The notes: a model not told the origin generated them from the sequence alone. Shown: positions 2,891 through 22,958, counted from the first letter of the stretch. The stretch is DNA of 44,333 nucleotides from a plasmid (NZ_AP023325.1), one strand, 5' to 3'. Numbers and translations are program-made.

Positions 2891-2928
2891 CTTAGCGTAC
2901 GTTTTCGACCATCCTCTCACCGGTCCCC
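2891..2928. repeat. 38-bp terminal inverted repeat of Tn3-family transposon 1 (cttagcgtacgttttcgaccatcctctcaccggtcccc), followed by the TSD GTTCT (2929-2933).
   Basis: Perfect reverse-complement match to 40857-40894. Canonical GGGG…ACGCTAAG Tn3-family IR architecture. Confidence 0.85.
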
Positions 2929-4218
2929 GTTCTGGCGGCCCTTCACCGACATTCCCGATATCGACATGGACACGGCCGCGATCGTCCGCGCCTGGAGCGC
3001 GGCGCGCGACGCGGTGCTTACGATCCTACGCGCGAAAGCCGCCGCGCCCCTGGATGCGATGGAGCTGTCGCCAGAATGCATCGCCGCGATCGACGCCTAT
3101 GACGTTCATCGCGCGATGGTTGCTGACCTCTCGGACGCGCTCCTCGCCCGCAATCCATCGATCGCCATCGTCAAGGAACAGGCCGCAGTCGCCGACATAG
3201 CCACGCTGTCCGACGACCTCGCGAAGCTCACCGCTGTAAGGACGCGGCACCAGACACCCACCGCCGCGCTTTGCGATGCATACCTCGGGGAGAAAGCGGC
3301 CAAGAAGGCGACGGAAAAATTACGCGATGAGGCACGCGCCGCGCTCGACCAATATCGGGGAGGTGTCTTCCCCGCCTACGAGGCCGCGATCAACGACTAT
3401 CTGGGCCGCTTCAACGCCGGTTTTCGGCTTGGCTCCGTCACGTCGGTGAACAACCGGGGCGGATCGTCCGCCAGCTACAGCGTACTCATCAACAACGTCG
3501 CGGTCGCGCTGAGCGCCGATGGTGGCCCTTCGTTCAAGAACACGCTCAGCGCCGGTGATCGAAACGCCCTCGCCTTGGCCTTCTTCTTCGCCTCGCTCGA
3601 TCAGGACGCCCGGTTGGCGGAAAAGGTCGTGGTCATCGACGATCCCATGACAAGCCTGGATGAACATCGGCGGCTCACGACGGTCCAGAGATGCGCCGGC
3701 TATATGGCCGGGTACGTCAGATGATCGTGTTATCTCATTCCAAGGCGTTTCTCTGCGCCGTGTGGGACGGCGCGGATCGAATGGCTCGCTGCGCCCTTCA
3801 GATCGTGCGAAGCGGCGGGGGATCGACGCTCGCGCCCTGGGACGTGCGGCAAGACACGCTCACGCCGCACGATCGCCGGCACGAGCTGGTGCGGGAATAT
3901 CTCCGGACCAGCGATTCCGCGCGCGAGCGCGAGGTCGCTGCGGCGCTCCGTCCAATCCTAGAAGCGTTCATGCGGGTGGCTCACCCCGAAACCTTCCCGC
4001 CAGGCACACTGCTTGGCCCATTCATTGCCATATGCCAGCAGCGGCATGATGGACCCGGCGAGATACTATCCCCGGTTGCGACGACCGAGCTGCGCGCGCT
4101 GCTCGATTACGCCAACACCTTCCATCACGATACGAACCCGGCTTGGGAAACCGCCCTCATCAACGATCGGGAGCTGCTTGGCTTCGCTACCCGGACGATT
4201 GCCTTCGCTTCGCGGTAA
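2929..4218 (+). pseudogene. 3' half of an AAA_13/RloC-PrrC-like ABC-type ATPase gene cut by transposon 1. Carries the ABC signature LSAGDRNALALAFFFASL, Walker B/D-loop VVVIDDPMTSLDEHR and a ~170-aa C-terminal domain of unknown function. Has an additional 1-bp frameshift at ~3690.
   Basis: Own translation. Once the transposon and one TSD copy are removed it continues in frame from the 5' half at 39853-40856 (…VENREFW|RPFTDIPDID…). Confidence 0.7.
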
Positions 4219-5049
4219 CTAGACCTGACGCAGCTCGTCCAGAAGCTCGTCAGCACATGTTCGAGGTCCGGGAACACCGGATGCTCTTGGAAGTGCCGGG
4301 TCAGCTCCGTGTCGATCGTCTCTGGAGACTTGGCGTCCTCCTTCGACTTTTCAGCCCATTTCCGCCACGGGTGCAACGTGTCCCAAGGCGACCGCTTATT
4401 GGCGCGGGTGGTGGCGTCGTCGCCATGCTTGCCCAAGCCATAGAGGATGCTCGTCTCGCTGTTCCAGATCGGTCGGAACAGGTGGATCATGTAATCCTCG
4501 GCGGCCGTCTCCCATCCGCTCTGCACCACGAGCGAGCGAAACTCGAAATCCGCCAGTCCAGCGTCGTGGTGGCCGTGCCGATGTTCTTGCGGTGATCGGA
4601 CAGCCTACCACAAAGCCGCGGTCCCTGTTCCAGCGGCGTGCGCGCGTTGTTGATCGCCGGCGCGGCCGGCCGACATAGATGGGCGTCTCGCTACCGCTGA
4701 TCGGCGCGTAAAGCGGGAAGGGGCCGTTGTAATAGATGGCGTAGATGCCCGACCCGTAGAAGCGCGGTATCTCGGCCAACGGGTGCCGCTGCTGCGCGAC
4801 CAGCGCGAGCGACACGAACCGCCCTACCACCTTGGGGTTGCTCGGATCGAAGACGGCCGATGGCTGCCGGATCGGATCGAGCGTGTTCAGGAACGAACCC
4901 AGCTCCTGGATCACGGCGCGAATCTCTTTCTCAAGCGCGCGCCGCCGTGGAGCCGACAGCGTGGTCGCGGCCGTCTGCTCCATGAGACTGTCGAGATTGG
5001 CGCGCAGCTCGGCGATGGGCGACGGCGCGGGAGTAGGCTTGCGGCTCAT
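4125..5049 (-). CDS. GIY-YIG restriction endonuclease (Eco29kI-like), frameshifted. The true 3' end may be at 4219.
   Basis: GIY…YVG motif (FYGSGIYAIYYNGPFPLYAPISGSETPIYVG). Immediately downstream of, and overlapping, a C5-MTase gene. Confidence 0.5.
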
Positions 5050-6229
5050 GCGGCGACCAGATCCTCGCCACGTTCGCGCCGATCGCGTGGGCGAGTTGTA
5101 CCGGAACCGCGTTGCCGAGCTGACGCATGGATTCAGTCCATGACCCGTGAAAGCGGAAGGTATCGGGGAAGGTTTGCAGGCGGGCACTCTCCCTCACGCT
5201 GAAATACCGCACGCTGCCATCCGCCCGGCGAAGCATGTTCTCGCCACGGCACGCCATGCACGCCGGCCTTCAACGTCTTCGCCGGCTCGTCCATCGGACT
5301 GCCAGTGTGCCCGACATAGCTACGCGCGCCGCCCTGGAAGCGATGGTTGAGGCACTTGGCCGCCAGTTCCGGCGCGAGCTGGGGGTCCGGCAGGTCGCCG
5401 ATCGCGTCGCGGACCGTCAGCCAAGGTGCCGTCTCGGGCTTCTCGATCAACATGCGGCCGCGGGCAAGAAGGCGAGCGTCCAGCAGCCGATCGCGCACCG
5501 CGACCTCGTGCCGGTCCCAATACTCGCCCGATCGAACCTGGTCCCACAGCAGCGCGTCCAGCGAATGAGTATGCTCCGGGAAGGACCATTCGATGCCAAG
5601 ATCGGCGCGGAAGCCGACGAACACAACGCGCTCGCGGCGCTGTGGCACACCGTGGTTCGCCGCGTTGAGGACGCGATAAACGACGTTGTAGCGCAACTCG
5701 TCTTGGCTGCCCCTAGCCGTGTGATGCCGCTCCGGCGCACCATGTGGTCGCTCCACGCCTCGCCCGGCAGCGGCGTCAGCTCGGGATAGGTAAGCTGGTG
5801 AACGATATGGGCGAGATAGGTCGCGAAGCTCGCGCGGGTCAGCCCCTTCACGTTCTCGAACACGAATGCCCTTGGCCGCGTCTCGCGCACGACGCGTACC
5901 GCCTCCGGCCACATGTCGCGGGTATCGGCATGGGCGCGATGCTTGCCGCCAAGCGAGAAAGGCTGACAGGGCGGCCCGCCGCTCACGAGGTCGATCTTGC
6001 CCTCGTGCTTCCGAAAATCGACCTTGCGAATGTCGCCCTCGATCGGCTCCGGCCACCGTCCGATACCACCCGTCTTGGCGCGGCGGTTCTCCCGGATCGT
6101 GTCGCAGCACCAACGGTCCCACTCAACGATCTGCACCGGCTTGAAGCCGGCCTTGCTGATGCCCATGCCCAGGCCCCCGGCCCCGGCGAACAATTCAATG
6201 GCGCGCATGGTCGACTCCCTCGCCTTCAA
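5040..6229 (-). CDS. DNA cytosine-5 methyltransferase (Dcm-type) with at least 2 frameshifts.
   Basis: Motifs I ELFAGAGGLGMG, IV GGPPCQPFS, VI ENV, VIII QRRERVVFVG, X RESARLQTFPD…GNAVPV, spread over three frames. Confidence 0.8.
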
Positions 6230-6640
6230 GAAAGGCTCTAATCTTGTTCTCTAGTTGTTCCATTTGCCGACATTCGCATTCCCACACAACCATCTGACGC
6301 CAACCTTCGCTCTCCAACGTCTCGCGGACGCGCTCGTCGCGCTCCCGGTTGCCTTCAAGCTTCGGCCCCCAAAAATCCTGCCTCGATTTCGGCATCCGCG
6401 CCAGCTTGCAGTTAGGATCGGGATGCCGATGCCAGAAACAGCCATGCACGAAGATGACCTTGCGGCGGCTCCTGAATACAAGGTCAGGGCTTCCGAGGAG
6501 GCGCTTGTCGTGAAGACGATAGCGGTAGCCCATCCCATGAACCAGACGACGGACGACCATTTCTGGCTTGGTATTCTTCGCGCGCACCCGCCCCATCCGT
6601 TCCGAGCGAGCTTCGGGTGACAAAGTATCTACCACGAACA
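6195..6640 (-). CDS. vsr: Very-short-patch repair endonuclease Vsr. Its stop overlaps the MTase start.
   Basis: LSPEARSERMGRVRAKNTKPE…FVHGCFWHRH…VVWECE matches Vsr hallmarks. Confidence 0.75.
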
Positions 6641-6645
6641 GTCTA

Positions 6646-7344
6646 TCACTTCGCCGCCGATGCGATACGCACCGTGCAAGGCACCGTCTCACCCGCCTTG
6701 TTCGCGCGCTTCTGGCACGCCTCCAGCACGACGCGGTTGGCGGTAACGATCCGATCCCCCGCCGCGATGTTGGCGAAGGCATCTGGTCCAGCGGCCCGCA
6801 TCAGGCGTTGCCCGGCTTCCCATTTCGGCAGATCAAGCGTGCGCGCCGCCATCCACTCAGGCACCTGCCATCTATCCGGCAGCGCGCGGGCGACGACACC
6901 CGGCACGACCGTCCACAACAGCATTCCGCCCAGGCACGCCCCCGCCCCGACCTGCCACAGCGTCCGGCGCTGCTCGTCCGCGCGACGGGCAACACCGCCG
7001 ATCCCGTGCAACGCGGTCGTCGCCCGGTCCATCTTCTCGCCGGCGCTGGCGATCATGCGCCGATCCTCGTCGCGGGCATTGGCGCCGGCCGCGACGATGC
7101 GGTCGGCGACATGGCGCGGCGCGACATTATCCTCGGCCGCCTTCGCCAGCACGCCGACATTCTGCATAGTGGCGTTGAGCGCCTTGGCCATCCGCCCCAG
7201 CGTCTCGCTGTAATCGGGTATCTGCGGCACCTCGGCGCGCTCGGCCGCCAGTCGCTCGACGGCGCGGCGCATCAGGGCCATTTCGCCGCGAATCTGCTCA
7301 AACGCTTCCACCGCGGCATCCGGTTCGTGATCGTCGTGGCTCAT
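6646..7344 (-). CDS. Hypothetical protein (232 aa) downstream of traA on the same strand, with an acidic N-terminus.
   Basis: ORF track. Protein-like composition. No family I can recognise. Confidence 0.4.
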   Translation of the reverse strand: MSHDDHEPDAAVEAFEQIRGEMALMRRAVERLAAERAEVPQIPDYSETLGRMAKALNATMQNVGVLAKAAEDNVAPRHVADRIVAAGANARDEDRRMIASAGEKMDRATTALHGIGGVARRADEQRRTLWQVGAGACLGGMLLWTVVPGVVARALPDRWQVPEWMAARTLDLPKWEAGQRLMRAAGPDAFANIAAGDRIVTANRVVLEACQKRANKAGETVPCTVRIASAAK

Positions 7345-7401: not shown

Positions 7402-10341
7402 CTATCGGCTCATGCCCCGGTCGCGCTGCCGATCGCCGCAGTCTATCGATGCCGCCAGCGCGTCGCCGATCGACCGCTCGCGCTGCATGTCCAGCTTCAG
7501 CTCGGGCGCGCGTCGGCGCAGTGCGGATTCGAGCTGTGGATCGCGTGCAAGCCCGCCGGCCGCCTTCTCCATGCGTGCCTGCATCCGCTCCGCGCCGGCA
7601 CTGTCGCCGTTCCGCTCCAGCCCGGCACGCTGCCGCTGCATCGTCTGCCAGCCTTCGACAAACCGATCGGCGCGCGCGTCCGGATCGAGCCGGACACGCT
7701 GTTCCTCGGCCATCGCCCGAACCGCGCCGCCCGTGTTCCCGCTCGCCGCCTGCTCGATCAGTTTGGGATCGCGCTGCATCGCGGATGCGAGGTCGCGCGC
7801 CGCATCGGGCCGGGTCGCGTCCAGCGCCTCGATCGCGCGGCGGGCCGCCGTTTCCTGATGCGGCAGCACCGGCAGTCCCTGATCCTTCATCCGCCGCACG
7901 TCGGCCGCGACGCGGGCATAGTCGCGGATCGCCCTGGCCTGGTCGGGACGGGCATCGCGCGATCCCACGCTGATCGCCGCACCCCCGCGCTCGGCCGCCG
8001 GCGCCTTCTCCGCCATAGGCTTCGGCCGGAACCCGGCGAATATGCCGCGCGCCTTGTCACGGACCTTCTCGACCACCTGGCGCGCGAGTTCCGGGAACCG
8101 GATCTCGCGCCGGTCGGCGAAGGCGCGGGCATGATCCTGTTCGCTGCGATCGGGCGCATAGTCACCGGCCATGTCCTTGCCGCGGTCGCGCGACAGCACG
8201 CGCGCGAGCTTGCCCTGATCGGCGAAGTCGTCGCGGCCGTAATGAAGCTGCACGCCGTCGCGATGCCGCGACAGCCCGACATAGCCGCTGTGCCGGTCCA
8301 TCCCCGGCGTCGCGAGGACATGGGCGCGATCGACGGTGACGCCCTGCGACTTGTGGAAGGTGGCGGCATAGCCGTGATCGACCGCGGCATAGTCCTTCGC
8401 CGCGAACGTCACCTCGCGCCCACCGTCGAGCCGCACCGTCATGCCCTCCGGCGTCACCCGCCCGATCGTTCCCAGCGTGCCGTTCTTCACCCCCAGCGAC
8501 CGCTCGTTCCGCAGGAACATCAGGCGGTCGCCCGCCGCGAAGTCGCGATGGCCCCGGTCGGACGCGAACGCCACATCCTCGCCCAGCTCGCCGTTCGCGC
8601 GAAGCCGGTCCCGCGCCTCCCCGTTCAGCTCGCGGACCTCGGCATTGGTGTGGGTGAGAATGATGCGGGTCTTGTCGGGATCGGCGCGGCGCTGGCGATC
8701 CCATCCGTCCACGAGGCTTTCCCGCGCCTGCTCGCGCGTGTCGGCCGCGTGGACCATACCGTGCGCGGCATAGGCGTCCAGCGCCTCGGCCGTGCGACCC
8801 GTGGCGAGCGCCCGCGTCGCGTCCTTCTGCCAGTCCTCGCGCTGCCGGCGAACCTCGGTGATCTCGGCCGCGCCGTGCCGCTCGGTGATCGACCGGAACG
8901 CCGCCCCCGCCTCGATCGCCTGCAACTGCTCGGGGTCGCCCACCAGCACAACTTTCGCGCCGGCGTCACGGGCATGGGACAGCACCCGCTCCATCTGGCG
9001 GGTGCCGATCATGCCCGCCTCGTCGACGACCAGTACGTCCTTCGGGCCGAGCTGATCGCGCCCCTGCGCCCAGCCATGCTCAAGGCTGGCGATGGTACGT
9101 GACCGGATGCCCGATCCGTCTTCCAGATTCTCGGCCGCGATCCCCGACAGCGCCGCCCCGCGCACCTGATAGCCCTCGCGTTCCCATGCCTCGCGCGCGA
9201 CGCCCAGCATCGCCGACTTGCCGGTGCCGGCATAGCCGACGACCGACGCCACCCCTTCGCGTCCGGTGATATGGTCGAAGGCGTCGCGCTGCTCGCCCGA
9301 CAACACCAGCCCCCGCCCCTCGGCCGCGCCGATCGCGGCGTCACGCTGCCGATCGCCGACACCATGATCGCCGCGCCGTACCAGCTCGTCGCCGGCGCGC
9401 TCCAAGCGCGCCTCTGTCGCGATCATGTCACGGGAGGTGAACCGCTCCTGGTCGCGACCGTCCTTCCCCAGCGCCACCAGCTCGGGGCTGGCGCGCACCG
9501 CCGCCATCACCCGGTCGAACTGCTCCTTGCCGTCCGAATGCCGGAACGCGAATGTCGCGAGGTCGCGGGTGGTGAACGTCGCCTGCTGCCGGGCGATACC
9601 GTCCAGCGCGTGACGCGGATCGGCGATGATCTTCTCGCCATTCTCGCGCGCGATGCGGGCGTGATCCTCGATCCGCTCCGCTTCCAACCCCTGCTCCGGT
9701 CGCCGCGACGCGGCCGGGCCGATCTTGTGCTGCGGCTCCAGCGCGATGCCTTGGTCGGCATAGGAACGGTGGTCGATCCGACCCTCCAGCCCCAGCTCCG
9801 CCATGCGCTCGTTGACATGGGCGCTCCACGCCTCGCGCCATTCCTTCAGCAGCTCGGTGCCGTTCCAGTCGCGGTTCTTCTGTCCGAATCCCTCCGGCCC
9901 CACGTCGCGCATCGACAGCATGACATGCGCGTGCGGCTTCGGGCTGCCGTCCTTCGCCTTGTCCCAATGCACGTTGAGGTCCGCGACCATCCCGCGCTTC
10001 ACGAACTGCTCTTTCACGAAGTCGCGGGCGAGCGCGATGCCCTGTTTTTCGCTCATCTCGCGCGGGATCGAGAACTCCACCTCGCGGGCGAGCTGCGCGT
10101 CCTTGCGTTTCTCCCCCGCCTCCACCTCGTTCCAGAGCGTGGTGCGGTCGTTTAAACGCTCCGGCGCGCCCTGCGGCAACATCACCTCGGAATGGATGAC
10201 GCCGGCCTTGTTCGAGAAGTCGTGCGATCGTCCAAGCCGCTGGTCGGGAAGCTCGGATGCGGAGCGATAGGCAGCGGACGCGATGGCGCTGGAGCCGTTC
10301 GCGCGGCTGATGACCTTGGCGCTGAAATGGTAGATCGCCAT
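7402..10341 (-). CDS. traA: Ti-type conjugative relaxase/helicase TraA (MobQ-type MobA/MobL relaxase N-domain plus a RecD-like helicase). No frameshift.
   Basis: MAIYHFSAKVISR…AYRSAS relaxase motif. Helicase Walker A GYAGTGKS. Start at internal Met 20 of the 998-aa ORF. Confidence 0.85.
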   Translation of the reverse strand: MAIYHFSAKVISRANGSSAIASAAYRSASELPDQRLGRSHDFSNKAGVIHSEVMLPQGAPERLNDRTTLWNEVEAGEKRKDAQLAREVEFSIPREMSEKQGIALARDFVKEQFVKRGMVADLNVHWDKAKDGSPKPHAHVMLSMRDVGPEGFGQKNRDWNGTELLKEWREAWSAHVNERMAELGLEGRIDHRSYADQGIALEPQHKIGPAASRRPEQGLEAERIEDHARIARENGEKIIADPRHALDGIARQQATFTTRDLATFAFRHSDGKEQFDRVMAAVRASPELVALGKDGRDQERFTSRDMIATEARLERAGDELVRRGDHGVGDRQRDAAIGAAEGRGLVLSGEQRDAFDHITGREGVASVVGYAGTGKSAMLGVAREAWEREGYQVRGAALSGIAAENLEDGSGIRSRTIASLEHGWAQGRDQLGPKDVLVVDEAGMIGTRQMERVLSHARDAGAKVVLVGDPEQLQAIEAGAAFRSITERHGAAEITEVRRQREDWQKDATRALATGRTAEALDAYAAHGMVHAADTREQARESLVDGWDRQRRADPDKTRIILTHTNAEVRELNGEARDRLRANGELGEDVAFASDRGHRDFAAGDRLMFLRNERSLGVKNGTLGTIGRVTPEGMTVRLDGGREVTFAAKDYAAVDHGYAATFHKSQGVTVDRAHVLATPGMDRHSGYVGLSRHRDGVQLHYGRDDFADQGKLARVLSRDRGKDMAGDYAPDRSEQDHARAFADRREIRFPELARQVVEKVRDKARGIFAGFRPKPMAEKAPAAERGGAAISVGSRDARPDQARAIRDYARVAADVRRMKDQGLPVLPHQETAARRAIEALDATRPDAARDLASAMQRDPKLIEQAASGNTGGAVRAMAEEQRVRLDPDARADRFVEGWQTMQRQRAGLERNGDSAGAERMQARMEKAAGGLARDPQLESALRRRAPELKLDMQRERSIGDALAASIDCGDRQRDRGMSR

Positions 10342-10511
10342 CGTGCTTCTGTTTCTACCATTCTGAGCGCACGTCGGCAACGACGTATAAGCGCGCACTC
10401 ACGATCTGCTGCGCATCTCCTGATTGACTTGATTGCACTTTCTGATCGTGGTTGCTCTCCCCTACCGGTTTGCTAGATTGATGCAGGTTGGATGCGGAAG
10501 ATGGAGGCACC
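10342..10511. promoter_or_regulatory. oriT: oriT region between divergent traA and traC. Contains the hairpin CGTCG-gcaa-CGACG (10372-10385) next to a nic-like sequence TATAAGCGCGCAC (10386-10398). On the other strand this reads AGTGCGCGCTTATACGTCG, resembling the Ti/RSF1010 nic core.
   Basis: Seen in sequence. Position between divergent relaxase and traCD genes. Confidence 0.55.
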
Positions 10512-11462: not shown

Positions 11463-11727
11463 GGCGGTCAGGGCGGAGGTCCGCGCGCTGAATTACGTGC
11501 GCGGCACATCGGAGGAAGCCGCCGACTGGCGTCGCGCCGATGCGGACGCGCGCCACAACAACGTCATTGAGGGGCTGGAGTTCTCGTCGGCCGAGGACGC
11601 GCTGTTCGACATGCTGCGTGACGAGGCGGTGCCGCCCGAGCTGGCTACGCGGATCGTCCTCAAACTGATGGATCATCCCGACGCCGATCGGAGCCTCGCG
11701 ATCACGTCTGTCGGAATGGGCTGGTAA
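11443..11727 (+). CDS. Hypothetical 94-aa protein. Its TAA stop overlaps the traG ATG.
   Basis: ORF track. taATG overlap. Confidence 0.4.
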   Translation: MMPLDVEAVRAEVRALNYVRGTSEEAADWRRADADARHNNVIEGLEFSSAEDALFDMLRDEAVPPELATRIVLKLMDHPDADRSLAITSVGMGW

Positions 11728-13025
11728 TGCCGCCCCGCCGGATCGGGCCGCTCTGGGCGCTGCTGATCGCCTTCGTCGTCCTGATGGCGAGCAATAACTG
11801 GCTCAAGGGCATCTTCGGCGTCGGCGAGATTGCGACCGACGTGCCGTTCCTGCTGACCGGCCTGACCCTGTTCGGCATCTGGAAGTTCAACCGCCGCGGC
11901 GGCAATCGCAACACGCTGATGGGGTCGGCTCGCTTCGGCGACCGGCGCGACCTGGCGAAGCTGGAAGGATCGGGCGACCTCATCATCGGCCGGTCGGGTC
12001 GGAACAACAAGCTGCTGCGCTACGATGGCGTGGCGCATCTGCTGACGATGGCCCCCACCCGGTCGGGTAAGGGGGTCGGCACGATCATCCCCAACCTGCT
12101 GCTGCTCGATCGCTCGGTGATCTGCATCGACCCCAAGGGCGAGAATGCCCGCGTCACGGCCCGCACGCGGGCCAGCAAGGGCGATGTGTGGTGCCCGGAC
12201 CCCTTCGGCGTTTCCGGGCGTCCTGCGGCCCGCTACAACCCGCTGGCGTGGCTCGACGCGACCAGCCCGGACCTCGCGGAAGATGCACAGACGGTCGCCG
12301 ACGCGCTGGTCCACGATGCAGCCGGACAATCGGGCGAGGCGCACTGGAACGAGGAAGCCAAGGCGCTCATCGCCGGCATCATCCTGCACACCGTTGTCCA
12401 CGAACCCATGTCCCGCGCCACGCTGGCGACGGTGCGTGACAAGCTCACGCGCGATCCCGCCGGTTTCGCCGCGCTGCTCGCCGAAATGCAGGCCAGCACC
12501 GGCGCACATGGCCTGATCGCGCGCGCCGCCAACCGCCACCTCGGCAAGTCCGATCGCGAGGCCGCCGGCGTGCTGTCGTCCGCCCAGCGCCACACCCATT
12601 TCCTCGACAGCCCGCGCATCGTGGACAGCACGTCGGCGTCCGATTTCCGGTTCGCGGACCTGAAGGAGCGGCCGGGCACCGTGTTCCTGTGCCTGCCGCC
12701 CGACCGACTCGACACCTATGCTCGCTGGCTTCGGCTGCTGGTCGCCCGTGCCGTCACCGACATGGCGCGCTCCCCTGCCCGGCCGGACAAGCCGGTGCTA
12801 TTCCTGCTCGACGAGTTCGCCGCGCTTGGCCGTCTCGATCCGGTTGAGCGCGCGATGGGGCTAATGGCGGGTTACGGGATGCAGCTCTGGCCGATCCTCC
12901 AGGACATGCACCAGCTCAAGGCCACCTATGGTGAGCGCGCCGGCACCTTCATGTCCAACGCCGGCGTGATCCAGACGTTCGGGGTCAACGATCTTGCCAC
13001 CGCCGACATGCTGTCGCGTACTATC
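11727..13025 (+). pseudogene. traG: traG/virD4 coupling-protein gene, 5' portion. Walker A-type region and LFLLDEFAALG motif. Cut at 13025 by transposon 2.
   Basis: TraG/VirD4 motifs. Reading-frame continuity with 20866-21111 once the insertion and one CTATC copy are removed (SRTI|GDTTIEYE). Confidence 0.8.
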
Positions 13026-13146
13026 GGGGCACCTCAAGGTTTGTCATATGGACAGCGGCAGTCGGAACAAATGGTCAACAAAAGCCTGAGCGTTGCCGCA
13101 AAGTATATTAAGTTTCGTGGGTTTGTGAGGTTGGACGAGTTGGAAG

Positions 13147-13770
13147 TTACCGGATCACCTCTCGTGATGTTTCACCCGCGGAGCTCGTAGTAGACGATCT
13201 GCCATCCATTCTTGGGACCGCGCCACTGGGTGATCTGAAAGCTATGGGCTTGTGCAGACCCGTCCAGACGCGGCTACTCCACCGTAGCGTTTCATCGTAA
13301 CTGCTTCCGGACGATAACGCACCCGCTATGCGCCGAATGGGCAGCTTGGCGGGGAGCCTGCGGATGCGTCGGCCATCGTTGCCGACAAAGATAACGTCTT
13401 CGGCCACGCTTCGTCTTGGAACAGCCAACCAGTCGACCTGTTTGCCGGCCTGCTCCTGTCGCAAAACAGACGCGATCTCTTTCGCATCGCTAACGGCTTG
13501 GATTTGGAGCTGTTCATTGGTGAGTTTTGCCGAGCACTCAGGTTCGATCGCTTGTAAACTTTCTGCCGCTAATGCCTTCGATCCATCCCGACGATAGTCG
13601 TCGATTTCCCAGCGCCACCCCTCAGCACTGTTCCGCCAAAGCGTCTTATATGATCCAACTCGATTTCCGCCATCGTACAGCCCGCCGATAACAACTGCCG
13701 ACCCGCTCGGATCACAGGACGGAAAGACAAGTTCGGGTCTGCGCTCGGCATGGCTCTCGACACTCATCAT
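13147..13770 (-). CDS. Hypothetical protein in the low-GC cargo segment of transposon 2 (start taken at MMSVESH).
   Basis: ORF track. GC content clearly lower than the surroundings. No recognisable family. Confidence 0.35.
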   Translation of the reverse strand: MMSVESHAERRPELVFPSCDPSGSAVVIGGLYDGGNRVGSYKTLWRNSAEGWRWEIDDYRRDGSKALAAESLQAIEPECSAKLTNEQLQIQAVSDAKEIASVLRQEQAGKQVDWLAVPRRSVAEDVIFVGNDGRRIRRLPAKLPIRRIAGALSSGSSYDETLRWSSRVWTGLHKPIAFRSPSGAVPRMDGRSSTTSSAGETSREVIR

Positions 13771-14025
13771 TGTGAGCCACCACCTTCGGCTACTCTCGGC
13801 TACTCTCGGCTGCTTGCAACATGCTGGCCACAGATGGAGAGCGCGCGGTTTCGGGCGCATGTTGTATTGGCCAGGGGTCGCTTTGTGGACCGAAACTGCG
13901 TGCCGCTGCCTGACGGCCACTGGCAAGTACAGCTTCCGAGTAGGCCCGCTCCGCCTCCAGCGCGGAATTCGGCGAACTTGCCGCTAGTAGAAGCGCGAAG
14001 ATCATGGCGAAATCCTACTCCTCAA

Positions 14026-14605
14026 TCAACGTGTCGAGCGATGTACGGGCATCTGCGCCGGATGGTTGAGCGCCCGATAGAGCGTGGCATGATGACACTT
14101 CAGCAGCTTCGCCGCTTCGCGCACCGATGTGCCTTCGCCGACGAGACGCTGTCCGAGCGCGATCTGGTCCGGAGTGAGCTTGGGCTTACGCCCGAACTTC
14201 ACGCCGCGCGCCATGGCTGCCGCGCGGCCGGAACTGGTACGCTGGTGGATCAGCTCGCGCTCGAACTCCGCGATGCCGGCGAACACGGTGAGCACCATGC
14301 GTCCCGCAGGCGTGGTCGTGTCGGCCCGTGGCTCGGCGAGCGAGCGCAGCCCCGCTCCCGCCTCGTTCAGCTTCTCGGCGATGTCGAGCAGGTCGCGCGT
14401 CGACCGCGCTAGGCGATCGAGCCGGGTGACCACAACCACGTCGTCGTCGCGCAGCTGCTCCAGCATCCGGTCGAGTTCCGGTCGGGCGCGCTTGGCGCCG
14501 GACACCTTCTCCTCGAATGTCCGCCGGCATCCGGCCGCCTTCAGTGCCGTCTTTTGAAGCGTGAGATCCTGATCGTCGGTAGATACGCGCGCATAGCCGA
14601 GGAGC
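14026..14605 (-). CDS. Serine recombinase (resolvase/invertase family), intact.
   Basis: MLLGYARVSTDDQDLTLQ…, catalytic Ser motif, C-terminal HTH. Confidence 0.8.
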
Positions 14606-14718
14606 ATGTCGCAGATGTGCATTGGAACACGGCTGATTAGCAACAGACATTTGCGACAGCGTCCGCCCTCGTGTGTAAACGCTCGCGCTAAATGGCGGCG
14701 TTCTGATCGCGCTATTTG

Positions 14719-15700
14719 TCAGTTGCCGGGTCCGATGACGAGGCAATCGCGCGCGGCCTGAACGATGTCAGCGGTGACCTCCTCGACGCGGTTGAGGGTC
14801 ATGATCCGCCGCATCTGCGCGAACAGGCGCTCCATGAGCCGGAAGTTGCCGCGCGTGATGCGGATCACGGCTGCCTGCGCTTCGATCGCGTCGAGTTGGG
14901 CCGGGTCGAAGCTGATCCCGAAATCGCCGGCGTGGGTCGCGAGCAGCAGCCGCATTTCGGTCTCGGTAAGCGGTTTGAACTCGTGGACGAAGCCGATCCG
15001 CGAGTAGAGCTGGGCATAGCGGGCGAGGCGCTTCTCCAAGCCCGGCATACCCATCAGGATCAGCCCGAAGCCGTGGCGATCGGCCATGTCGCGGAGATGT
15101 TCGAGCGACTTTATGGTCAGGCGGTCGGCCTCGTCGACGATGACGAGGGGGCAGGCGATGCGGGCGGCGTCATGGGTGATTTCGTCCTGCGAGCCGCCCG
15201 CGACCGTCAGCCGGGCATAGCCCAGCTTAATGAGGTTGAGGCCCAACACCGCGTCGATCGTCTTGGGCGTGTTGCTGACCGACACGGTGTAGAAGACGGC
15301 GCGGCAGCGAGCGACCTTTTCGCCAAGGAGCGCGGCAATGGGACGGAGCGCGGCATATTCCCCGTGTCGGGGAAGCTGGAAAACTCGCGCGCCGATCGCG
15401 TCTTTCCGACGCCCGGCCGGCCATGACACACGCCGATATAGCGGTAGTGCGCGCAGGCTTCGGCAAACTCGACGAACCGGGCATGTTCGCGGGTCGCCGG
15501 AACGGCTGCTCGACCAGGAACTCAATCGTCAGCGGCGTAGAGCCGGAGCCCTCGGTAGGTGGTGGGCCGGGAAGCCGTATCCTCTTGGTCGCCATCGAAG
15601 GTCTCCGTGGGGGCAGGCACCTGCTTGTCGCGCTCCTTCGCGCCGCGCCGGGCGCGCTGGATCGCGCGCAACGACGGGTGCCCAGCGTGCTCGGAGCTGA
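14719..15700 (-). CDS. tniB: TniB-like AAA+ transposition ATPase (Tn402/Tn5053 family), frameshifted.
   Basis: Walker A GRPGVGKTRSAREF in one frame and Walker B LVIVDEADRL in another. Confidence 0.65.
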
Positions 15701-16996
15701 GCGCACGGCAGACGAACCGGCCCTGGTAGACGTGGATCTCGGTCAGGTCGCGGGGTCATAGACCGCCTCGACCTGCTCGCCGACGAAGGCCGCGAGCGTG
15801 GGTTCGACATAGCGCCTGCCCATCAGACGGATGCCGTCGCGCAGCACTTTACGGGGCTTGGGCACGTGCACGAGCAGCATGTCGAGCTGTTCAAGGCTGT
15901 CGGGCATTGCGGGCAGGAACCCGCCCTTCTGCCAGCGCGTGATCGGCGGTTCGCCGGTGCTGCCATGCGGGCGACGATGATAGACGCCGCACACGAACGC
16001 CTCGAAGCGGGCGCGCAGCTCGTCGAGCGTGAGCACTGGCGCCGACAGCGGCTTGCCCGCGATCAGGTGGCCGGGCAGGTCGGGCAGGAACATGTCGTTG
16101 ATGGTGCGGAACAGCCGCTCGATCTTGCCGCGCCCGCGAGGACGCCCCGGCAGCGAATGGATGAGGCGGATTTTGAGGGCGATGCACGCCTGCTCGATAT
16201 GCTCGGAGATGAAATCCGAGCCGTTGTCGACGTAAAGCTGTTCGGGAATGCCGCTGACGATCCATTCGGGATTGGGCTTGCGCCAGATCGCCTGCCGCAA
16301 GGCGAGCGCCGTGTTGAGGGCACTGGGGGCATCGAGGCTGAGGAAGTAACCGGCGATGGCTCGGCTGTGATCGTCAACGATGACGGTCAGCCAAGGACGC
16401 ACCGGGGTTCCGGCATCATCGAGCACGAGAATGTCGAGAACGGTATGATCGGCCTGCCACATCTCGTTCGAGGTCGCGGCTTCGCGCCGATGCACTAGCT
16501 CGTGCTGGTCGCGGTAGACGGCCGGATCGGAGGCTGCGGCGATCTGGCTTGCCGGTATCGCCCTGACGACACGCGCGACGGCCGCATAGCTGGGGGTTCG
16601 GTGTCCATGCGCGATGGCGAGTTCCTGCACCTTTCGGTGAATGGCGGCGACCGGGGGTCGCGGGCGCTTGGTGGCGAGAGTGCGGGTCAGTTCGACCAGA
16701 TGTTCCGGCAGGTGCAGCCTGCCCCGATCGTTGCGCGGCAGACGCGCGAGACCGGCAAGTCCTTCGGCACGGTAGCGCCCGAGCCAGCGCTGCAACGTCC
16801 GCTCGCTCAGCGTGCCGGTGCGGGCGAGGTCCGCGAGCGGGATGCCATCGGCGAGGTGCGGTTCAAGGACGCGGTAGCGCTCGATCGCCAGCGGCGGGAC
16901 AAGCGCCGGATGCGTCACCGCCGACGGTCCGTGTCGCAGGTAAGGAAAACGGAGATTTGCCTGCCCATCGCCATGCGAGTCCGCTCGCGTTGCCAA
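15530..16996 (-). CDS. tniA: TniA-like DDE (Mu-type) transposase, 3' frameshift.
   Basis: DDE core WQADHTVLD…VIVDDHSRAIAGY…YVDNGSDF. Confidence 0.7.
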
Positions 16997-17109
16997 ACCG
17001 GCCTGTTCGACGTAAATCTACCCGGTAAAGAAAACTAGGGCAACATAGACCTGCCGATGACGACTTTCTTCCCAAACCGCGCCCGATCGGGGCGCCACCG
17101 GCCCTACGC

Positions 17110-17681
17110 ATGAAAATCGGTTACGCCCGCGTATCGACCGCCGAGCAGAACCTGGACCTCCAGCGTGATGCGCTGAAGGCTGCCGGCTGCGAGAAGGTCA
17201 TCACCGACAAGGCCTCCGGGGCGACTGCCGCTCGCCCCGGATTGGAAAAGGTGAAGGAGCTGCTTCGCGCCGGCGACACACTGGTGGTCTGGCGCCTCGA
17301 CAGGCTCGGCCGCTCGCTCCGTGATCTGATCGGATGGATGACCTACCTCGACGAGGAAAAGGTCGGGCTGCTGAGCCTGCACGAGGCGATCGACACGACC
17401 ACCACGTCGGGCAAGCTTACCTTCCACCTGTTCGGGGCATTGGCGGAGTTCGAGCGCAACCTGATCCGCGAGCGGACCCGGCCGGTCTCACCGCAGCCCG
17501 CGCTCGCGGCAAGAAGGGTGGCCGGCCGGCCGCACTCGGCAAGGACAAGCGCGACCTGGCCGTCAGGCTCTACCACGAGAACACGATGCCGATCGCCAAG
17601 ATTTGCTCGATGCTCGGCATCTCCAAGCCAACACTCTACGCCTATGTGCGATCGGCCGAGACCAAGCCGGTAGCCGCGTAG
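17110..17681 (+). CDS. tnpR: Serine resolvase (probable tnpR of transposon 2), 1 frameshift ~17485.
   Basis: MKIGYARVSTAEQNLDLQ… plus an HTH tail in a second frame. Confidence 0.75.
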
Positions 17682-17844
17682 CGACGCTCGCCGACAAATA
17701 GCGCGATCAGAATGCCGCCACTTAGCGCGAGCGTTTACACCTCGTGGCGTGACCGGTCAGGGCCGCTGTCACGAAACTTGAGAGTTACGCGACACCTCGC
17801 ACGTGTCGGCCATAAACTATACGCTCCCGGACAGGGGGTGATCG

Positions 17845-20798
17845 ATGGCCAGACGCGATCTGTTAACGGGCGACGAACGCCGCGCGTTGTTCGGCGTGCC
17901 CCTCGACCATGCCTCGCTCGCCAAGCATTACACGGTTGCCGATGAGGACCGGCCACTGATCGAAGCGAAGCGCGGCGACGCCAACCGGCTCGGCTTCGCG
18001 CTGCACCTCGCCCTGCTGCGTCATCCCGGCTTCGGCATACGCCACGACGATGTCGTCCCCGATTTTCTGATCCGGCACCTGGCCGCGCAACTCGACATCG
18101 CGCCCACAGCGTTCGAGGGCTACGCGCATCGCGCCCAGACCCGGCTCGAACACGCCCGGGAGGCGATGGAGCGTTTGCGCCTGCGCGCGTTCGAGGCGGC
18201 CGACGTCCCCGGCGCGCTCGGCGCAGCCACCCGCGCGGCGGAAGCGACCGAACGGGGCAAGCCGATCGCCGCGCAGTGCTGGGCCATTTGCGTGCTGCCC
18301 GGATCGTTCTGCCCGCGCCCGCCCGTATCGAGCGGATCGGGGTGGCGGGGCGCGCCATGGCGCGCCGCCTCGCGGCCGACACGCTGGTCGATGCGCTTGC
18401 TCCGGAGCAGGTGACGGGGCTGGATGCGTTGCTGATCGTGGACCAGATCGCAGCACGACGCCGCTCGCGTGGCTGCGCGACACGTCGGACAGCCCGACCG
18501 CGCGCAATCTCGCCGGCATTCTCGCCCGGCTCGCGCACGTGCGCCGGCTCGGGCTCGACCCGGGCATGGCCGGCCGCATCCACGAGCACCGCTTCGAGCA
18601 GCTCGTGCGCGAAGGCCACGTCGCGCCCGCGTTCCTCCTGTCCGACTACTCGCTCCGCAGAAGGCGCGCGACACTCGCCGCAGCCGTCATCGACCGGAAG
18701 CGCGGCTCGCGGACGCCGCGATCGAGATGTTCGGCAAGCAGACCGGCCTCCTGTTCGCCGGGCGGGCCGCGCAGAAGCGCGGCATCGAGGCGACCACACG
18801 CGACGTGAACCGGCTCATGCGGCTGCTGGGCGCCACGGTCGGCGCACTCCGGGTCGCGCGCGAGGACGGGTTGGACGTCTGGGCGGCGCTCGACGACGGG
18901 GTGGGCTGGACGAGGCTTCTGGACGCCGAGAGCGAGGCGACCGCGATCGCCGACCTGACTCGCGACGAGCCGCTGATCCGCGCGGCGGGGCGCTACATGA
19001 CGATGCGGCGCTACGCGCCCGCGTTTTTTGACGCGTTCCGGTTCAAGGCGGCAGGCTCGCGCGACGGCGTGCTCGGCGCGATCAAGGTCGTGCGCGCGCT
19101 GAACGCGACCGGGCGGCGAGACGTACCGGCCGATGCGCCCATGCCGTTTTCCAGAAAATGGAAGGCGGCGATCACCGAGGGCGGCGTCATCGACCGCCGT
19201 CGCTACGAAACCGCCACGGTCGCGACCGTGCGCGAGCGGCTCCAATCGGGCGACCTGTGGGTGGAGGGTACGCGCGAACACCTGCGCTTCGACAGCTATA
19301 TGCTCCCGCCCGGCAAAGCGGCCGAGATCGCGCTCACGCTGCCGTTCGACACCGACGTCGGCCGCTACTTGAGGGCGCGCCAGCTGCTCGACTGGCGGTT
19401 GCGCCGGTTCGCAGGCTCGCTGAAGCGCGGCACGCTCGACGGCGTGGAGCTGCGGGGCGGTAACCTCAGGGTCAGCCCGCTCGCGGCCGTAACGCCCGCT
19501 GCGGCCGACAGGCTGGACGCGGCCGTCGACCGGCTCATGCCCCGCGTGCGCATCACCGAGCTGCTCGCCGAGGTGGAAGCCCGCACCGGGTTCCTGTGCG
19601 CATTTCCGGAACTGCGCTCGGGCCGCGCCCACTCCAACCCGCAGGCCGTGCTCGCCGCGATCCTGGCAGACGCGACGAACCTCGGCATCGAGCGCATGGC
19701 CAACGCCAGCCGTGGCGTCACCTACGCCCAGCTCGCCCGACGCATGGCTGGTACGTATCGGAAGAGAATTACGCGGCAGGGCTGCGCCATCTGGTGGACG
19801 CGCAAGCCGCGCTGCCGCTCACGCGCGTGTGGGGCGACGGCACCGCGTCGAGCTCGGACGGGCAGTTCTTCCGCTCGGGCAGGCGGGCGCGGCCGGCAGC
19901 ACCAACGCGCGCTACGACCGGGAGCCGGGGCAGAAGATCTACGCCCATGTCGCCGATACCTACGCGCCCTACCATGTCCGGCTGATCTCGGCGACCGCGG
20001 CGGAGGCGCCCTATGTGCTGGACGGGCTGGTCGCGCACGGCTGCGGCATCGAACCCGCGACCCACTATGCCGATACGGGCGGCGCGTCCGACCACGTGTT
20101 CGCGCTCGCGCACCTACTCGGCTTCCGGTTCGTGCCCCGCCTGCGCGATCTAGCCGATCGCCGGCTCGGCCTGTTCCCGGGCACGGCCCGCCCCGAGGCG
20201 CTCGCGAAGCTGATCGGGCGCCCGTTCAACATCGCTGCCATCCGCGAAAGCTGGGACGAGATCGTCCGGCTCGCCGCGTCCGTGAAGGCCGGCGTGGTGC
20301 TACCGTCGGTCATGCTGAAGAAGCTGGCCGCGTACCGTCGCCAGAACCGGCTCGACTTCGCGCTCCAGAGCTGGGCCGGATCGAGCGCACCCTGTTCACG
20401 CTCGACTGGCTAGAATCCGTGGCGCTCCGCCAGCAGTGTCAGGCTGGGCTCAACAAGGGCGAGGCGCGTCACACGCTCGCCCAAGCCGTGTTCGTCCACA
20501 AACAGGGCCGCCTGCGCGATCCGCAGTTCGAGAACCGGCGCTGAAAGCGTCCGGGCTGACGCTGGTCACCGCCGCGATCGTGTACTGGAACACGCTTTAC
20601 ATGGGCCGCGCCGTCGAGCATCTGCGCGCCAGCGGCGAGCCCGCGCCCGACGAGCTGCTCGCCCATGTAGCCCCGCTAGGCTGGCGACACATCAGCCTGA
20701 CCGGCGATTACCTCTGGCAAAACGCCGCTGCCGAGCTCGATCAAGACGGCTACCGCGCACTCAACATCGCCGGCGGACCCGGAGCCAAGGTGGCCTGA
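17845..20798 (+). pseudogene. tnpA: Tn3-family transposase TnpA of transposon 2, broken into at least 4 frames.
   Basis: N-terminus MARRDLLTGDERRALFGVPLD…, central and C-terminal (…HVAPLGWRHISLTGDYLW) TnpA regions in consecutive ORF-track pieces. Confidence 0.75.
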
Positions 20799-20865
20799 GC
20801 CGCCCTGTTCGCTACCTGTTCAGCTTACCGCTGTCCGTGTCACAAACCTTGAGGTGCTCCCTATC

Positions 20866-21111
20866 GGCGACACCACTATCGAATATGAGACGTTCGGCAC
20901 GTCTCGTCCGGCGAGCATCTTCAGCGACGGTGCCCGATCGGAAAGCGCCAGCGGCCATGTCGCCGCCCGCCGGTTGGCGACGCCCGATGAAATCATGCGG
21001 ATGAACCCCGACGATCTCCTGCTGCTGCGGCAGGGTCAGCATCCGCTCGTCGTCGGCAAGATCCGCTACTATGCCGAACGCGAGTTCGCTGGCCTCTACG
21101 ATCCGGCGTGA
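20866..21111 (+). pseudogene. traG: traG/virD4 3' fragment (C-terminal ~82 aa) displaced by transposon 2.
   Basis: GDTTIEYETFGTSRP…LLLLRQGQHPLVVGKIRYYAEREFAGLYDPA, typical TraG C-terminus. Confidence 0.75.
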
Positions 21112-21299: not shown

Positions 21300-21676
21300 T
21301 CCGCAAATCTCCCTTCCCTGTCGTTTGATCCATGCGTCTGGGGTTAAGTGATTCTGTTAAATAGGAATCGTTAAGAAGGTTAAGGGGTCAAAAAAGCGGA
21401 TTTCTCGACGTATTTTCAATGGTTTGCGAGAGCGCCCGGTGGGTGAAACCCCGTGATTCGGTGGGTGAAACCCCGATAGTGTGGTGGGTGAAACCCCGAA
21501 GCGATGGTGGGTGAAACCCCGAGTCAGACTTGCGCGAAAACCGGGTGTTCAGATCGGTTATCCACAGACTGAAAGACTGTTCGCCATCCGAAGCGGCGTG
21601 CCGGCGTCCGCTGGTCGACTCTGACAGGTGGGTGAAACCCCGATAGTTTGGCCGGCGGTGGGTGAAACCCCGATAG
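21300..21676. promoter_or_regulatory. oriV: Iteron-type oriV. Has an AT-rich stretch (~21300-21420). Six copies of GGTGGGTGAAACCCCG sit at 21438, 21460, 21483, 21506, 21627 and 21657 (the first four at 22-23-bp spacing). A perfect DnaA box TTATCCACA lies at 21558-21566.
   Basis: Seen in sequence. Immediately adjacent to repA. Confidence 0.8.
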
Positions 21677-22629
21677 TCAGCGGCGGCCTGCGAGCCGATC
21701 CATCCGGGCATCCACCTCCTCAGTGCGCCGGCGATCAGCGTCGAAGCGCGCGCGTCGCTCCTCCTCCGCCCGCATCTTCTCTGCCAGCGCCAGCGTCTCG
21801 GCCTCGCCGCGGCGTCTGAACTGGACGGCTGGACTCCTGTCGGTCGTCTCCGCCAGCTCCATCGCATAGTCGGGGAGCTGATCGGCCTCGATCACGCGCC
21901 GGAGCATCCGGTTGAACTCCTTGGGCTGGGCGTCGCTGCCGGTCTTGTCGCGCAACACCTCGACCCGGCACAACCACCCACCCTGCTGCGAGCCGACATG
22001 CTTGCGCGCGATGCGATACAGCGCCCGCTCCAGCCCCCCGGACAGGAGGAAATAGTCGGGGTGCATGGTCAGCAGCGACTTCTCGTTGACGATGCCCTCG
22101 TAAACCCAATCGGAGAGGGTCAGTGTCATACCGCGGGCTGTTCGGTGTCGGCGTCGGTATCGAACGTCCAGCTATCCAGCCAGTTGAAGCCCGCCTTCTG
22201 CCGACGCTTCGTCGCCCGGATCGAGGTCGTGATGGATGTGGTCTGGAGCCGGAGCAGCGCGGCTTGCAGCTCCTGATAGTCCCTGCCCCCGGTGCTGCGC
22301 TTGATCGCCCGCAACAGGTCGTAGGGCGTCGTCGTCAGCGTGCGCGGTAGGTCGTTCAAGCCCTGCTGCTTCATGCGGTTGAGCGTGGATGCCGCCCAGA
22401 TCAGGATATCGGCATCCCAGATCGTCGCCATGCCATAGTCGGGGATCGCCTGGACGCGCACCCACGCCTCGCCGTCCGGGCTTTTATACTCGATCGGCTT
22501 CAGCCGCTTGCGCTTCTGGAGCGAGAAGAACGGCCGCTCCATGACCTCACGCTGGTCGCGAAGCGGCAGGTCGCCCAGCGCCGGGATGAACAGGTCGAAC
22601 TCGGGGTTGGGATCGCGCCGCTTGCTCAT
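21677..22629 (-). CDS. repA: Plasmid replication initiator RepA (alphaproteobacterial RPA/PF10134-like), 1 frameshift ~22128.
   Basis: …EFDLFIPALGDLPLRDQREVMERPFFSLQKRKR…ATIWDADILIW… motif pattern. Adjacent iterons. Confidence 0.7.
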
Positions 22630-22958
22630 GGCGCGAACCTGGTGTGCCCCGCTTGACCAGATACTGGCGGAGCAGGCGTTCGGTGATGACGGTGAGCGGT
22701 TCCCCACCCTCCTCGACGCTGAGTTGACGCAACGCGCGGTGCATGTCCTCGGGGATATGGATCAGCACCGGCTTCTTGCCGATGGCTGCTGCGCTTGGCC
22801 GGCGCTGTCGACGTCGGCGCGCCGGCGTCGCGGCGCGATCGACGCGCGGGTGCAGACTGCTGAGGTATGGGGGCAGACTCGACGGCGGGTGCCGGCACCT
22901 GTTCTTCGGGCTGGTCATCGAAAATGCCGGCCAGCGCGGAAGGCTTCCTCGCCATCAT
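22626..22958 (-). CDS. parG: Small ParG/RHH-type partition DNA-binding protein (frameshifted; 3' end uncertain).
   Basis: Disordered basic N-terminus plus an RHH-like KKPVLIHIPEDMHRALRQLSVEEG. Its start overlaps the parA stop. Confidence 0.5.
   Translation of the reverse strand: MMARKPSALAGIFDDQPEEQVPAPAVESAPIPQQSAPARRSRRDAGAPTSTAPAKRSSHRQEAGADPYPRGHAPRVASTQRRGGWGTAHRHHRTPAPPVSGQAGHTRFAP

Follow-up and report, generated by a model that had tools for sequence, protein, structure and literature searches.

The circular plasmid NZ_AP023325.1, whose 44,333 bp make up the whole of the stretch analysed here (hereafter "the window"), is a small, non-self-transmissible plasmid of the Sphingomonas type, mobilizable through a MOBQ/Ti-type system, and its coupling-protein gene, traG, is interrupted by a 7.8-kb insert. 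We propose that this insert is a composite transposon, in which a Tn552-like element is nested within a Tn3-family carrier, and that it entered traG as a unit; that the numerous frameshifts in its genes are artefacts of the assembly; and that mobilisation of the plasmid is likely to be blocked. Our estimate of the probability of this reading as a whole is about 0.85. The anatomy, the empty sites, the protein families and the pattern of errors are direct observations, from which movement as a unit, the targeting of res, the loss of mobilisation and the sequencing platform are deduced. That the window is a complete circle follows from the alignment of a related locus straight across its end and its start; on this circle lie traA, an oriT-like block, two genes of the TraD family, the split traG, iterons, repA, parA and cargo genes.

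The history that we envisage would have begun when a cargo-less Tn552-like element of 3.07 kb invaded the res region of the carrier, beside the res sites bound by its resolvase. The inner element would thereafter have travelled inside this 4768-bp Tn3-family transposon, and the composite would then have moved replicatively into traG between codons 433 and 434, with duplication of 5 bp of the target. The TraA relaxosome would in this way most likely have been uncoupled from the mating pore of a helper, unless a related TraG can act in trans. The features at the site of insertion are as follows.

11727 to 13025, plus strand: 5' fragment of traG, codons 1-433
13021 to 13025: left copy of the target duplication, literally CTATC, or TATCG if the G-run at the junction was under-called
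13026 to 20860, plus strand: the composite transposon, made up of the Tn3-family carrier (clean copies measure 4768 bp) and, nested in it, the 3.07-kb Tn552-like element
13026 to 13063, plus strand: left inverted repeat of the carrier (IR-L), 38 bp, starting GGGG in the window and GGGGG in all other copies
20823 to 20860, minus strand: right inverted repeat of the carrier (IR-R), 38 bp, its inner end TAAG if numbered from the corrected terminus
20861 to 20865: right copy of the target duplication, literally CTATC
20866 to 21111, plus strand: 3' fragment of traG, codons 434-514 plus the stop codon

The insertion in traG and the transfer module

A first-pass annotation of this DNA had claimed that the traG frame resumes once the element and one CTATC are removed, and it does: with position 13025 joined to 20866 there results a single open reading frame (ORF) of 514 aa which matches T4SS-DNA_transf (E = 1.2e-82, profile positions 36-451 of 468), TraG-D_C and TrwB_AAD_bind. 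TraG is 513 aa long in both of the relatives that were inspected in full, and the protein of the Sphingomonas melonis TY plasmid NZ_CP017579 aligns with the two fragments end to end, its residues 2-433 matching 11733-13028 at 94.7% identity and its residues 432-513 matching 20863-21108 at 95.1%. Similarly, the empty site, when reconstructed over 560 bp, aligns without a break to traG in 12 related sphingomonad plasmids of 20-110 kb. The interrupted gene thus has the features of a VirD4/TraG coupling protein, namely both domains, the Walker A and B motifs and contiguity with its homologues. Because the alignments of both the protein and the empty site are contiguous, the insertion is real, precise and recent. 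In the present arrangement the frame of the 5' part of traG stays open beyond the junction and makes up, with transposon sequence, a fusion ORF of 487 aa (11727-13190). The junction of traG with the transposon was absent from the 185,579 representative genomes searched, and the plasmid is without an entry in PLSDB.

The predicted 38-bp inverted repeats are also present, with one correction to their estimated eight or so mismatches: IR-L begins GGGGCACCTCAAGG, the reverse complement of IR-R begins GGAGCACCTCAAGG, and they are identical at 31 of 38 positions, which leaves 7 mismatches. Read literally in the window, the two ends of the element are GGGGCACCTCAAGGTTTGTCATATGGACAGCGGCAGTC on the left and, in reverse complement, GGAGCACCTCAAGGTTTGTGACACGGACAGCGGTAAGC on the right.

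The module into which the composite has inserted resembles the DNA transfer and replication (Dtr) module of the Ti plasmids (traA, oriT and traC-traD-traG) and the MOBQ mobilizable plasmids in combining a TraA with MobA_MobL and helicase parts, small TraD-family proteins and a TraG/VirD4 gene beside an oriT-like inverted repeat; it differs from them in that its coupling-protein gene is interrupted. Its other two main components are these.

7402 to 10398, minus strand: traA, Ti-type MOBQ relaxase-helicase with MobA_MobL and AAA_30, intact
10372 to 10445 (approximate): oriT-like block, the inverted repeat ACGTCG-GCAA-CGACGT followed by TATAAGCGCGCAC

The earlier description of TraA and oriT as intact is well founded, since TraA aligns in one frame over 971 aa at 89.5% identity and the oriT-like block, a candidate by sequence only, lies upstream of traA and is nearly invariant among the relatives. 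Equally, traG is the sole coupling-protein gene on the complete circle (no second one was found in its 44.3 kb) and it is split, so that no intact coupling protein is encoded. Genes for mating-pair formation (MPF) are indeed missing, none of their families having been detected in any sizeable ORF of the circle; this is the norm for the family and not a sign of decay, because the uninterrupted relatives (two fully inspected) are likewise MPF-less and are typed as MOBQ mobilizable. The assertion that the transfer module is probably non-functional must therefore be narrowed: traG is disrupted, but a plasmid that was never self-transmissible has not lost self-transmissibility, and what would be lost is mobilisation, which might be complemented in trans.

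The break falls after codon 433, downstream of Walker A (109-117), the LLDEF Walker B (360) and the ILQD motif (390), and 54 residues translated from the inverted repeat take the place of the last 81 of TraG. The lost segment aligns with the conserved NTPase core in the solved structure of the VirD4-like protein Cag5 (8DOL) and lies inside the Pfam domain TraG-D_C (356-480). The coupling function is thus likely to be lost, and with it, probably, mobilisation by means of the plasmid's own coupling protein unless a related TraG acts in trans. One may still ask whether the insertion, though real, is functionally unimportant, either because the coupling protein of a co-resident plasmid or a helper takes over or because the 433-aa stub remains active. 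Homologous traA-traD-traG modules do occur on several plasmids of one strain (three in S. cloacae and more than one in Sphingobium sp. RSMS), the Walker A, Walker B and ILQD motifs are all upstream of the break, and some MOBQ plasmids, RSF1010 for example, naturally use the coupling protein of their helper. Nonetheless, what was removed belongs to the conserved NTPase core within TraG-D_C, and coupling proteins are said to confer relaxosome specificity in Ti-type systems, in which case a heterologous helper may not substitute. On balance we regard an inconsequential insertion as unlikely, though deserving of serious consideration, and favour the loss of mobilisation through the plasmid's own TraG.

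A Tn552-like transposon nested in a Tn3-family carrier

The 7.8 kb had been taken for one transposon, which proved to be wrong. When the element was compared by megablast with other genomes, three kinds of match were obtained: a full-length match at 99.4% identity in the S. naphthae KACC 18716 plasmid NZ_CP117412 (L001), our reference copy for the composite; a shorter match of 4766 bp, which lacks the central 3.07 kb, in the plasmid NZ_CP144671 of Sphingomonas sp. gentR (L002, 3001-7766); and the central 3.07 kb only, at 99.5% identity, in dozens of sphingomonad plasmids. There are thus two nested transposons, of which the inner has its own ends and its own target duplication, and the outer, the carrier, exists in a copy without the insert. 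In this insert-free copy the gene order is a hypothetical ORF of 274 aa, a resolvase of 193 aa, a spacer of 165 bp and a Tn3-family transposase of 988 aa. The corresponding genes of the carrier in the window are as follows.

13172 to 14005, minus strand: passenger ORF, 274 aa in clean copies, hydrophobic, with a signal-peptide-like N-terminus
14026 to 14607, minus strand: tnpR, serine resolvase, 193 aa, intact in the window
17845 to 20798, plus strand: tnpA, 988 aa in clean copies

The TnpA of the intact copy that is 99.4% identical scores 925 bits against NF033527 (cutoff 500) and also matches PF01526 and DUF4158, and this protein, the inverted repeats of about 38 bp that start with a run of G and the 5-bp target duplication place the carrier in the Tn3 family. 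It shares with Tn3/Tn1000-like elements a layout of divergent tnpR and tnpA, with the predicted res region between them and one small passenger gene. It differs from known unit transposons of this family in being specific to sphingomonads, in whose Sphingomonas genomes it is common and multi-copy, and in that its passenger ORF belongs to no known family (zero matches in Pfam, NCBIfam, PADLOC and PHROGs). Two changes disrupt the passenger ORF in the window, a -1 at the CCAGG of position 13266 and, at 13786-13795, the tandem duplication of 10 bp, TCGGCTACTC; the S. naphthae copy lacks the latter, which is unlike the usual type of error and so may be a real frameshift. The terminus of the carrier, GGGGGCACCTCA, resembles that of Tn21. 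A search of the literature returned no name for either the carrier or the inner element in sphingomonads.

The inner element lies between the carrier's two divergent genes, and its parts are as follows.

14667 to 14673: left copy of the inner duplication, CCTCGTG, in the tnpR-tnpA (res) spacer of the carrier
14674 to 17739, minus strand: nested Tn552-like transposon, 3066 bp here and 3073 bp in clean copies, with TGT...ACA termini
14719 to 15595, minus strand: AAA_22 ATPase, 292 aa, p271-like, frame-broken at CCAGG sites in the window
15522 to 16918, minus strand: DDE transposase, 466 aa, with rve, Mu-transpos_C and a helix-turn-helix, frame-broken near its 3' end in the window
17110 to 17681, plus strand: serine resolvase, 190 aa, with one CCAGG-site frameshift in the window
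17740 to 17746: right copy of the inner duplication, CCTCGTG

The heptamer CCTCGTG is present once, at the same site, in the insert-free carrier. The termini of the inner element are TGTAAACG...CGTTTACA, and its ends as read in the window are TGTAAACGCTCG...CGAGCGTTTACA. Its inverted repeats are 47 bp long, and each contains two direct repeats of 17 bp, 24 bp apart, which are putative transposase-binding motifs. The duplications that flank it are CCTCGTG (7 bp) in the window and in S. naphthae, where a 5-bp reading, CTCGT, is possible, and ACCGGT (6 bp) in the S. paucimobilis plasmid pKira_1 (L003).

Outside the sphingomonads the nearest relatives of the inner transposase are found on plasmids of Staphylococcus, Bacillus and Enterococcus (41-44% identity over more than 92% of the length), against some 30% identity over 60-70% of the length for the TniA of Tn402-type elements. 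The match in the S. aureus plasmid pSR03 belongs to Tn552, recognisable by its blaZ-blaR1-blaI-resolvase-transposase arrangement, and comparison with it gives 52% identity for the resolvase (in the position of Bin), 41% for the transposase (p480) and, over a partial alignment, 31% for the ATPase; the resolvase is 46% identical to the TnpR of the carrier. Tn552 itself is composed of p271, p480 and bin, has short direct repeats and uses res sites as insertion hotspots (PMC3276174). The likeness extends from the homologous transposase, ATPase and resolvase to the TG/CA ends, the two direct repeats in each end, the duplications of 6-7 bp and, probably, the insertion into the res regions of resolvases. 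The inner element is nevertheless not Tn552, as the blaI-blaR1-blaZ cargo is missing and there is neither bla nor any other cargo, only three genes in 3.07 kb; its resolvase is divergent from the transposase-ATPase pair and not co-directional with it, its inverted repeats measure about 47 bp as against about 120 bp, and its host is an alphaproteobacterium. Membership of the Tn5053/Tn402 family was also considered and rejected, for of the set tniA-tniB-tniQ-tniR there is no tniQ in the 3.07 kb, TniA is distant and the duplications are of 6-7 bp and not 5 bp. What the two systems do have in common is the two-level nesting. The Tn5053/Tn402 elements are "res hunters" of the Mu/Tn7 superfamily that sit between resI and resII of carriers of the Tn21/Tn501 type and are moved by them (e.g. 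Tn6603::Tn5053, PMC7765201), and the inner element would occupy the corresponding area of its own Tn3-family carrier.

In pKira_1 the same inner element is found in the same carrier, 13 bp away from the site used in the window, in the opposite orientation and with a different duplication, and by these differences it is to be counted as an independent insertion. The tnpR-tnpA spacer of the carrier contains half-sites of the TGTCGC type; one pair of these, at 4660-4687 of NZ_CP144671, has the 12+4+12 bp geometry of site I in the res of Tn3/gamma-delta, and more half-sites lie nearer tnpR, the res subsites of the carrier being predicted from these motifs only. Both inner insertions are situated in the 35-bp gap between the site-I-like palindrome and the half-sites nearer tnpR, much as the insertions of nested Tn6603::Tn5053 cluster between resI and resII (PMC7765201). 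We infer that the inner element targets the res spacer of this carrier.

Moreover, S. naphthae has the same composite, inner junction included, at another host site, a transposase gene, where it is flanked by a TTCCA duplication; this would mean that the composite transposed as a single unit. A sequential origin, in which the bare carrier entered traG first and the Tn552-like element later chose the same spot as in S. naphthae, gains some plausibility from the apparently repeated targeting of this res spacer, which makes recurrent insertion conceivable. Yet the sole demonstrably independent insertion, that of pKira_1, differs in position, orientation and duplication, whereas the window and S. 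naphthae share the position, the orientation, the 7-bp duplication and, apart from differences of the error type, near-identity. Movement as a unit is accordingly the simplest reading of these data, and the two-step alternative appears improbable. As a more tentative suggestion, to which we would give somewhat less than an even chance, the inner element may be a minimal, cargo-free, TniQ-less res hunter of the Tn552 family that is native to the Alphaproteobacteria and rides a prolific Tn3-family transposon of Sphingomonas, the two forming an undescribed parasite-on-parasite pair that is spreading between sphingomonad plasmids.

Frameshifts, CCWGG sites and the true ends of the carrier

The tnpA of the carrier had been described as shattered into at least four frames. 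This is literally correct, as tblastn divides it into 8 segments; the pseudogenisation that it seemed to imply is another matter. Alignment of the composite with the S. naphthae copy revealed 28 difference events, 17 of which fall on CCAGG/CCTGG sites of the reference although such sites account for only 1.5% of its bases (binomial p = 2.5e-24), and 18 of the 24 reference CCWGG sites in the composite are altered in the window. Typically CCAGG has become CC-GG, CCA-G or CCGTGG and CCTGG has become CCCGG or CC-GG; the other differences are mostly shortenings of G-runs. Within tnpA nine indels shift the frame, six at CCWGG and the rest in G-rich runs, and a further deletion removes 3 bp. Compared with the intact TnpA, the eight segments reach 88-100% protein identity, and five of them 98-100%; the two with the lowest identity are short pieces that overlap indel sites.

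The same signature is seen elsewhere on the plasmid. In its other Tn3-family element (40857-44333) 3 of 5 CCWGG sites are altered and homopolymer errors are added, and the single-copy RND-efflux and YncE regions are affected in the same way. When the four regions are pooled, an indel affects 23 of the 50 CCWGG sites of the reference (~46%), as compared with 1 of 86 for CCSGG, 1 of 51 for GGWCC and 0 of 244 for GATC, and over the whole window CCWGG is depleted about two-fold (49 found, 84 expected). Such a distribution is familiar from Oxford Nanopore consensus sequences, in which ~70% of the errors are in Dcm motifs, with homopolymers next (Wick et al. 2019, PMC6591954). The resemblance lies in both the concentration on CCAGG/CCTGG and the second place of homopolymer length errors; the known cases concern the Enterobacteriaceae, whereas the host here is a sphingomonad, for which the platform and the methylase are deduced from the pattern.

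Since the breaks in tnpA sit at CCWGG sites and G-runs and are absent from near-identical copies, they are almost certainly consensus errors of a long-read, nanopore-type assembly and not the result of decay. By the same comparison four of the composite's five remaining genes very probably owe their frameshifts to such errors as well, tnpR being intact as it stands, and both transposons are probably intact and recently active. Three further explanations were set aside. Hypermutation through deamination of 5-methylcytosine (5mC) at CCWGG does not account for deletions and CCGTGG rewrites in place of CCWGG to CTWGG changes, and a biological mutational cause is unlikely because the changes are not the C-to-T transitions of such deamination. 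The notion that only repeats were left unpolished fails on the single-copy cargo regions, which have the same errors. Lastly, CCGCGG, suggested as an error motif by a weak Eco29kI-like match, is affected at only 1 of 14 sites.

That match belongs to a restriction-modification and repair cluster on the minus strand of the plasmid (4396-6782), which consists of a gene for Vsr (6195-6782, E = 7e-28), a C-5 cytosine methylase recognisable as a fragment only (5133-6238) and probably frame-broken by the same errors, and the weak Eco29kI-like endonuclease match itself (4396-5187). The methylase is no close relative of the dcm of the S. melonis plasmid, to which it is only 33% identical over 134 aa and which adjoins a gene with an EcoRII-N domain. 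This cluster may be the source of the 5mC behind the CCWGG errors.

One might nonetheless suppose that the insert is one decayed 7.8-kb Tn3-family transposon, its tnpA a true pseudogene, fossilised in traG as a dead element; the eight literal frame segments and the inverted repeats that differ at 7 of 38 positions would suit such a view. We rejected real decay of tnpA on account of the enrichment at CCWGG, which recurs in unrelated single-copy cargo, and of the 98-100% identity of most segments to an intact transposase of 988 aa; the mismatches of the inverted repeats, for their part, are the same in all copies, the multi-copy and evidently active ones included, and the central 3.07 kb form a separate transposon that has ends and a target duplication of its own. 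A dead element is therefore very improbable. Least probable of all is a chimera of the assembly, produced by collapse of a multi-copy repeat around a traG that is intact in the real plasmid, for although the carrier is multi-copy in many Sphingomonas genomes and the assembly visibly unpolished, a misjoin would link unrelated flanks and not, as here, the exact adjacent halves of one gene with a 5-bp duplication between them.

The same kind of error has to be reckoned with at the junctions of the composite. Among the genomes of the Sphingomonas group we found 42 copies of the left end of the carrier, 35 of them with usable flanks. In all 35 of these other copies the left end is GGGGGCACC, with five Gs, or six where the flanking base is G, as against four in the window; the right end is ...GGTGCTCCC, so that the termini are GGGGG...CTCCC (that is, GGGGG/GGGAG) throughout. 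The carrier is on this definition a unit of 4768 bp, and stand-alone contigs of exactly that length exist. The corrected termini also yield perfect 5-bp duplications in S. naphthae (TTCCA), in pKira_1 (ATCCT) and in the copy L032 (TACAT). The flanks in NZ_CP144671, AATAAG and CTAAAG, give a clean 5-bp duplication with no choice of terminus, which could be explained by a homopolymer error in that sequence or by recombination between copies.

It is thus probable that the junctions in the window have lost two homopolymer bases, and comparable under-calls of homopolymers occur at its positions 15751 and 42051. Either the duplication may be TATCG, with a G6 read as G4, or it may be CTATC, with G5 read as G4 and C4 as C3. 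Because the ends are GGGGG...CTCCC in 35 of 35 other copies, an uncertainty of 1 bp attaches to the boundaries in the window and to the duplicated 5-mer; the claim of a Tn3-family insertion in traG with a CTATC duplication thus holds for the insertion and for a 5-bp repeat, and for the exact 5-mer and boundaries to within 1 bp. The rejoined traG sequence is identical with CTATC and with TATCG.

Several points weigh against the interpretation developed here. The case for artefacts is drawn from the pattern of the errors and from comparison with other copies, and some of the differences from S. naphthae, a minority made up of six single-nucleotide polymorphisms and the 10-bp duplication, do not look like artefacts and could be real. 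Together, the true termini and the junctions in the window give no literal 5-bp duplication unless the two homopolymer bases are restored. The res subsites of the carrier come from motif prediction, as stated, and the frequent co-residence of related plasmids with a homologous TraG, three of them in S. cloacae, is relevant to the supposed loss of mobilisation. Finally, on several large sphingomonad plasmids the inner element has neither a target duplication nor a foreign resolvase gene beside it; in these copies (L010, L011, L013 and L014, at ~2003-5078, and L012) the 3073-bp element lies between the genes for a site-specific integrase and an aspartyl protease. This suggests a resolvase- or recombination-mediated rearrangement after insertion; the targeting of res is therefore supported for this carrier only. 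The plasmids with this arrangement include pSCLO_2, pISP0, pSHV1 and pSLPG, the last with a different left flank and the same right flank.

Other features of the plasmid and wider significance

The other Tn3-family element of the plasmid runs from 40857 to 44333 and continues into 1 to ~2880, with its tnpA on the minus strand, a resolvase gene that spans the end and start of the window, and then TauE and MBL-fold cargo. It appears to split a gene for an AAA_13 ATPase, whose N-terminal part is at 39853-40623 and whose C-terminal part is at 2888-3724, and its tnpA is frame-broken by CCWGG and homopolymer errors relative to a 99.6% identical copy in S. paucimobilis. A fourth serine resolvase gene (192 aa, 38589-39167, plus strand) is located on the backbone or cargo of the plasmid, where res-hunting elements may thus find several res sites.

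The interval from the end of traG to repA contains six exact copies of GGTGGGTGAAACCCCG (21438-21672), where chance predicts none; four of them are spaced 22-23 bp apart and are followed by the two others, and the six are presumably the iterons of the replication origin. The repA gene (22126-22707) matches only positions 1-133 of a 228-position profile and relatives have a 954-bp gene, so its shortness is possibly an artefact. In the S. melonis TY sequence (NZ_CP017579, L004) identical DUF6118, HWE kinase, response regulator and MCP proteins are encoded at 2522-6633 and again at 33610-37721, a repetition that looks like an untrimmed circular overlap in the public assembly.

For the reading of the plasmid itself, a practical consequence is that apparent pseudogenes, frameshifts and short or split ORFs in this unpolished assembly of the long-read type are to be distrusted. 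Biologically, the inactivation by a transposon of the coupling protein of a mobilizable plasmid is a routine event. Of wider interest is the pattern of a res hunter inside a Tn3-family carrier, known from the Tn5053/Tn402 elements of Pseudomonas and the enterobacteria, which would here be extended to the plasmids of the sphingomonads, plasmids that carry genes for degradation and for metal resistance. Should the inner element indeed be such a TniQ-less res hunter of the Tn552 family, the targeting of res sites in this superfamily would need a transposase, an ATPase and a resolvase only.

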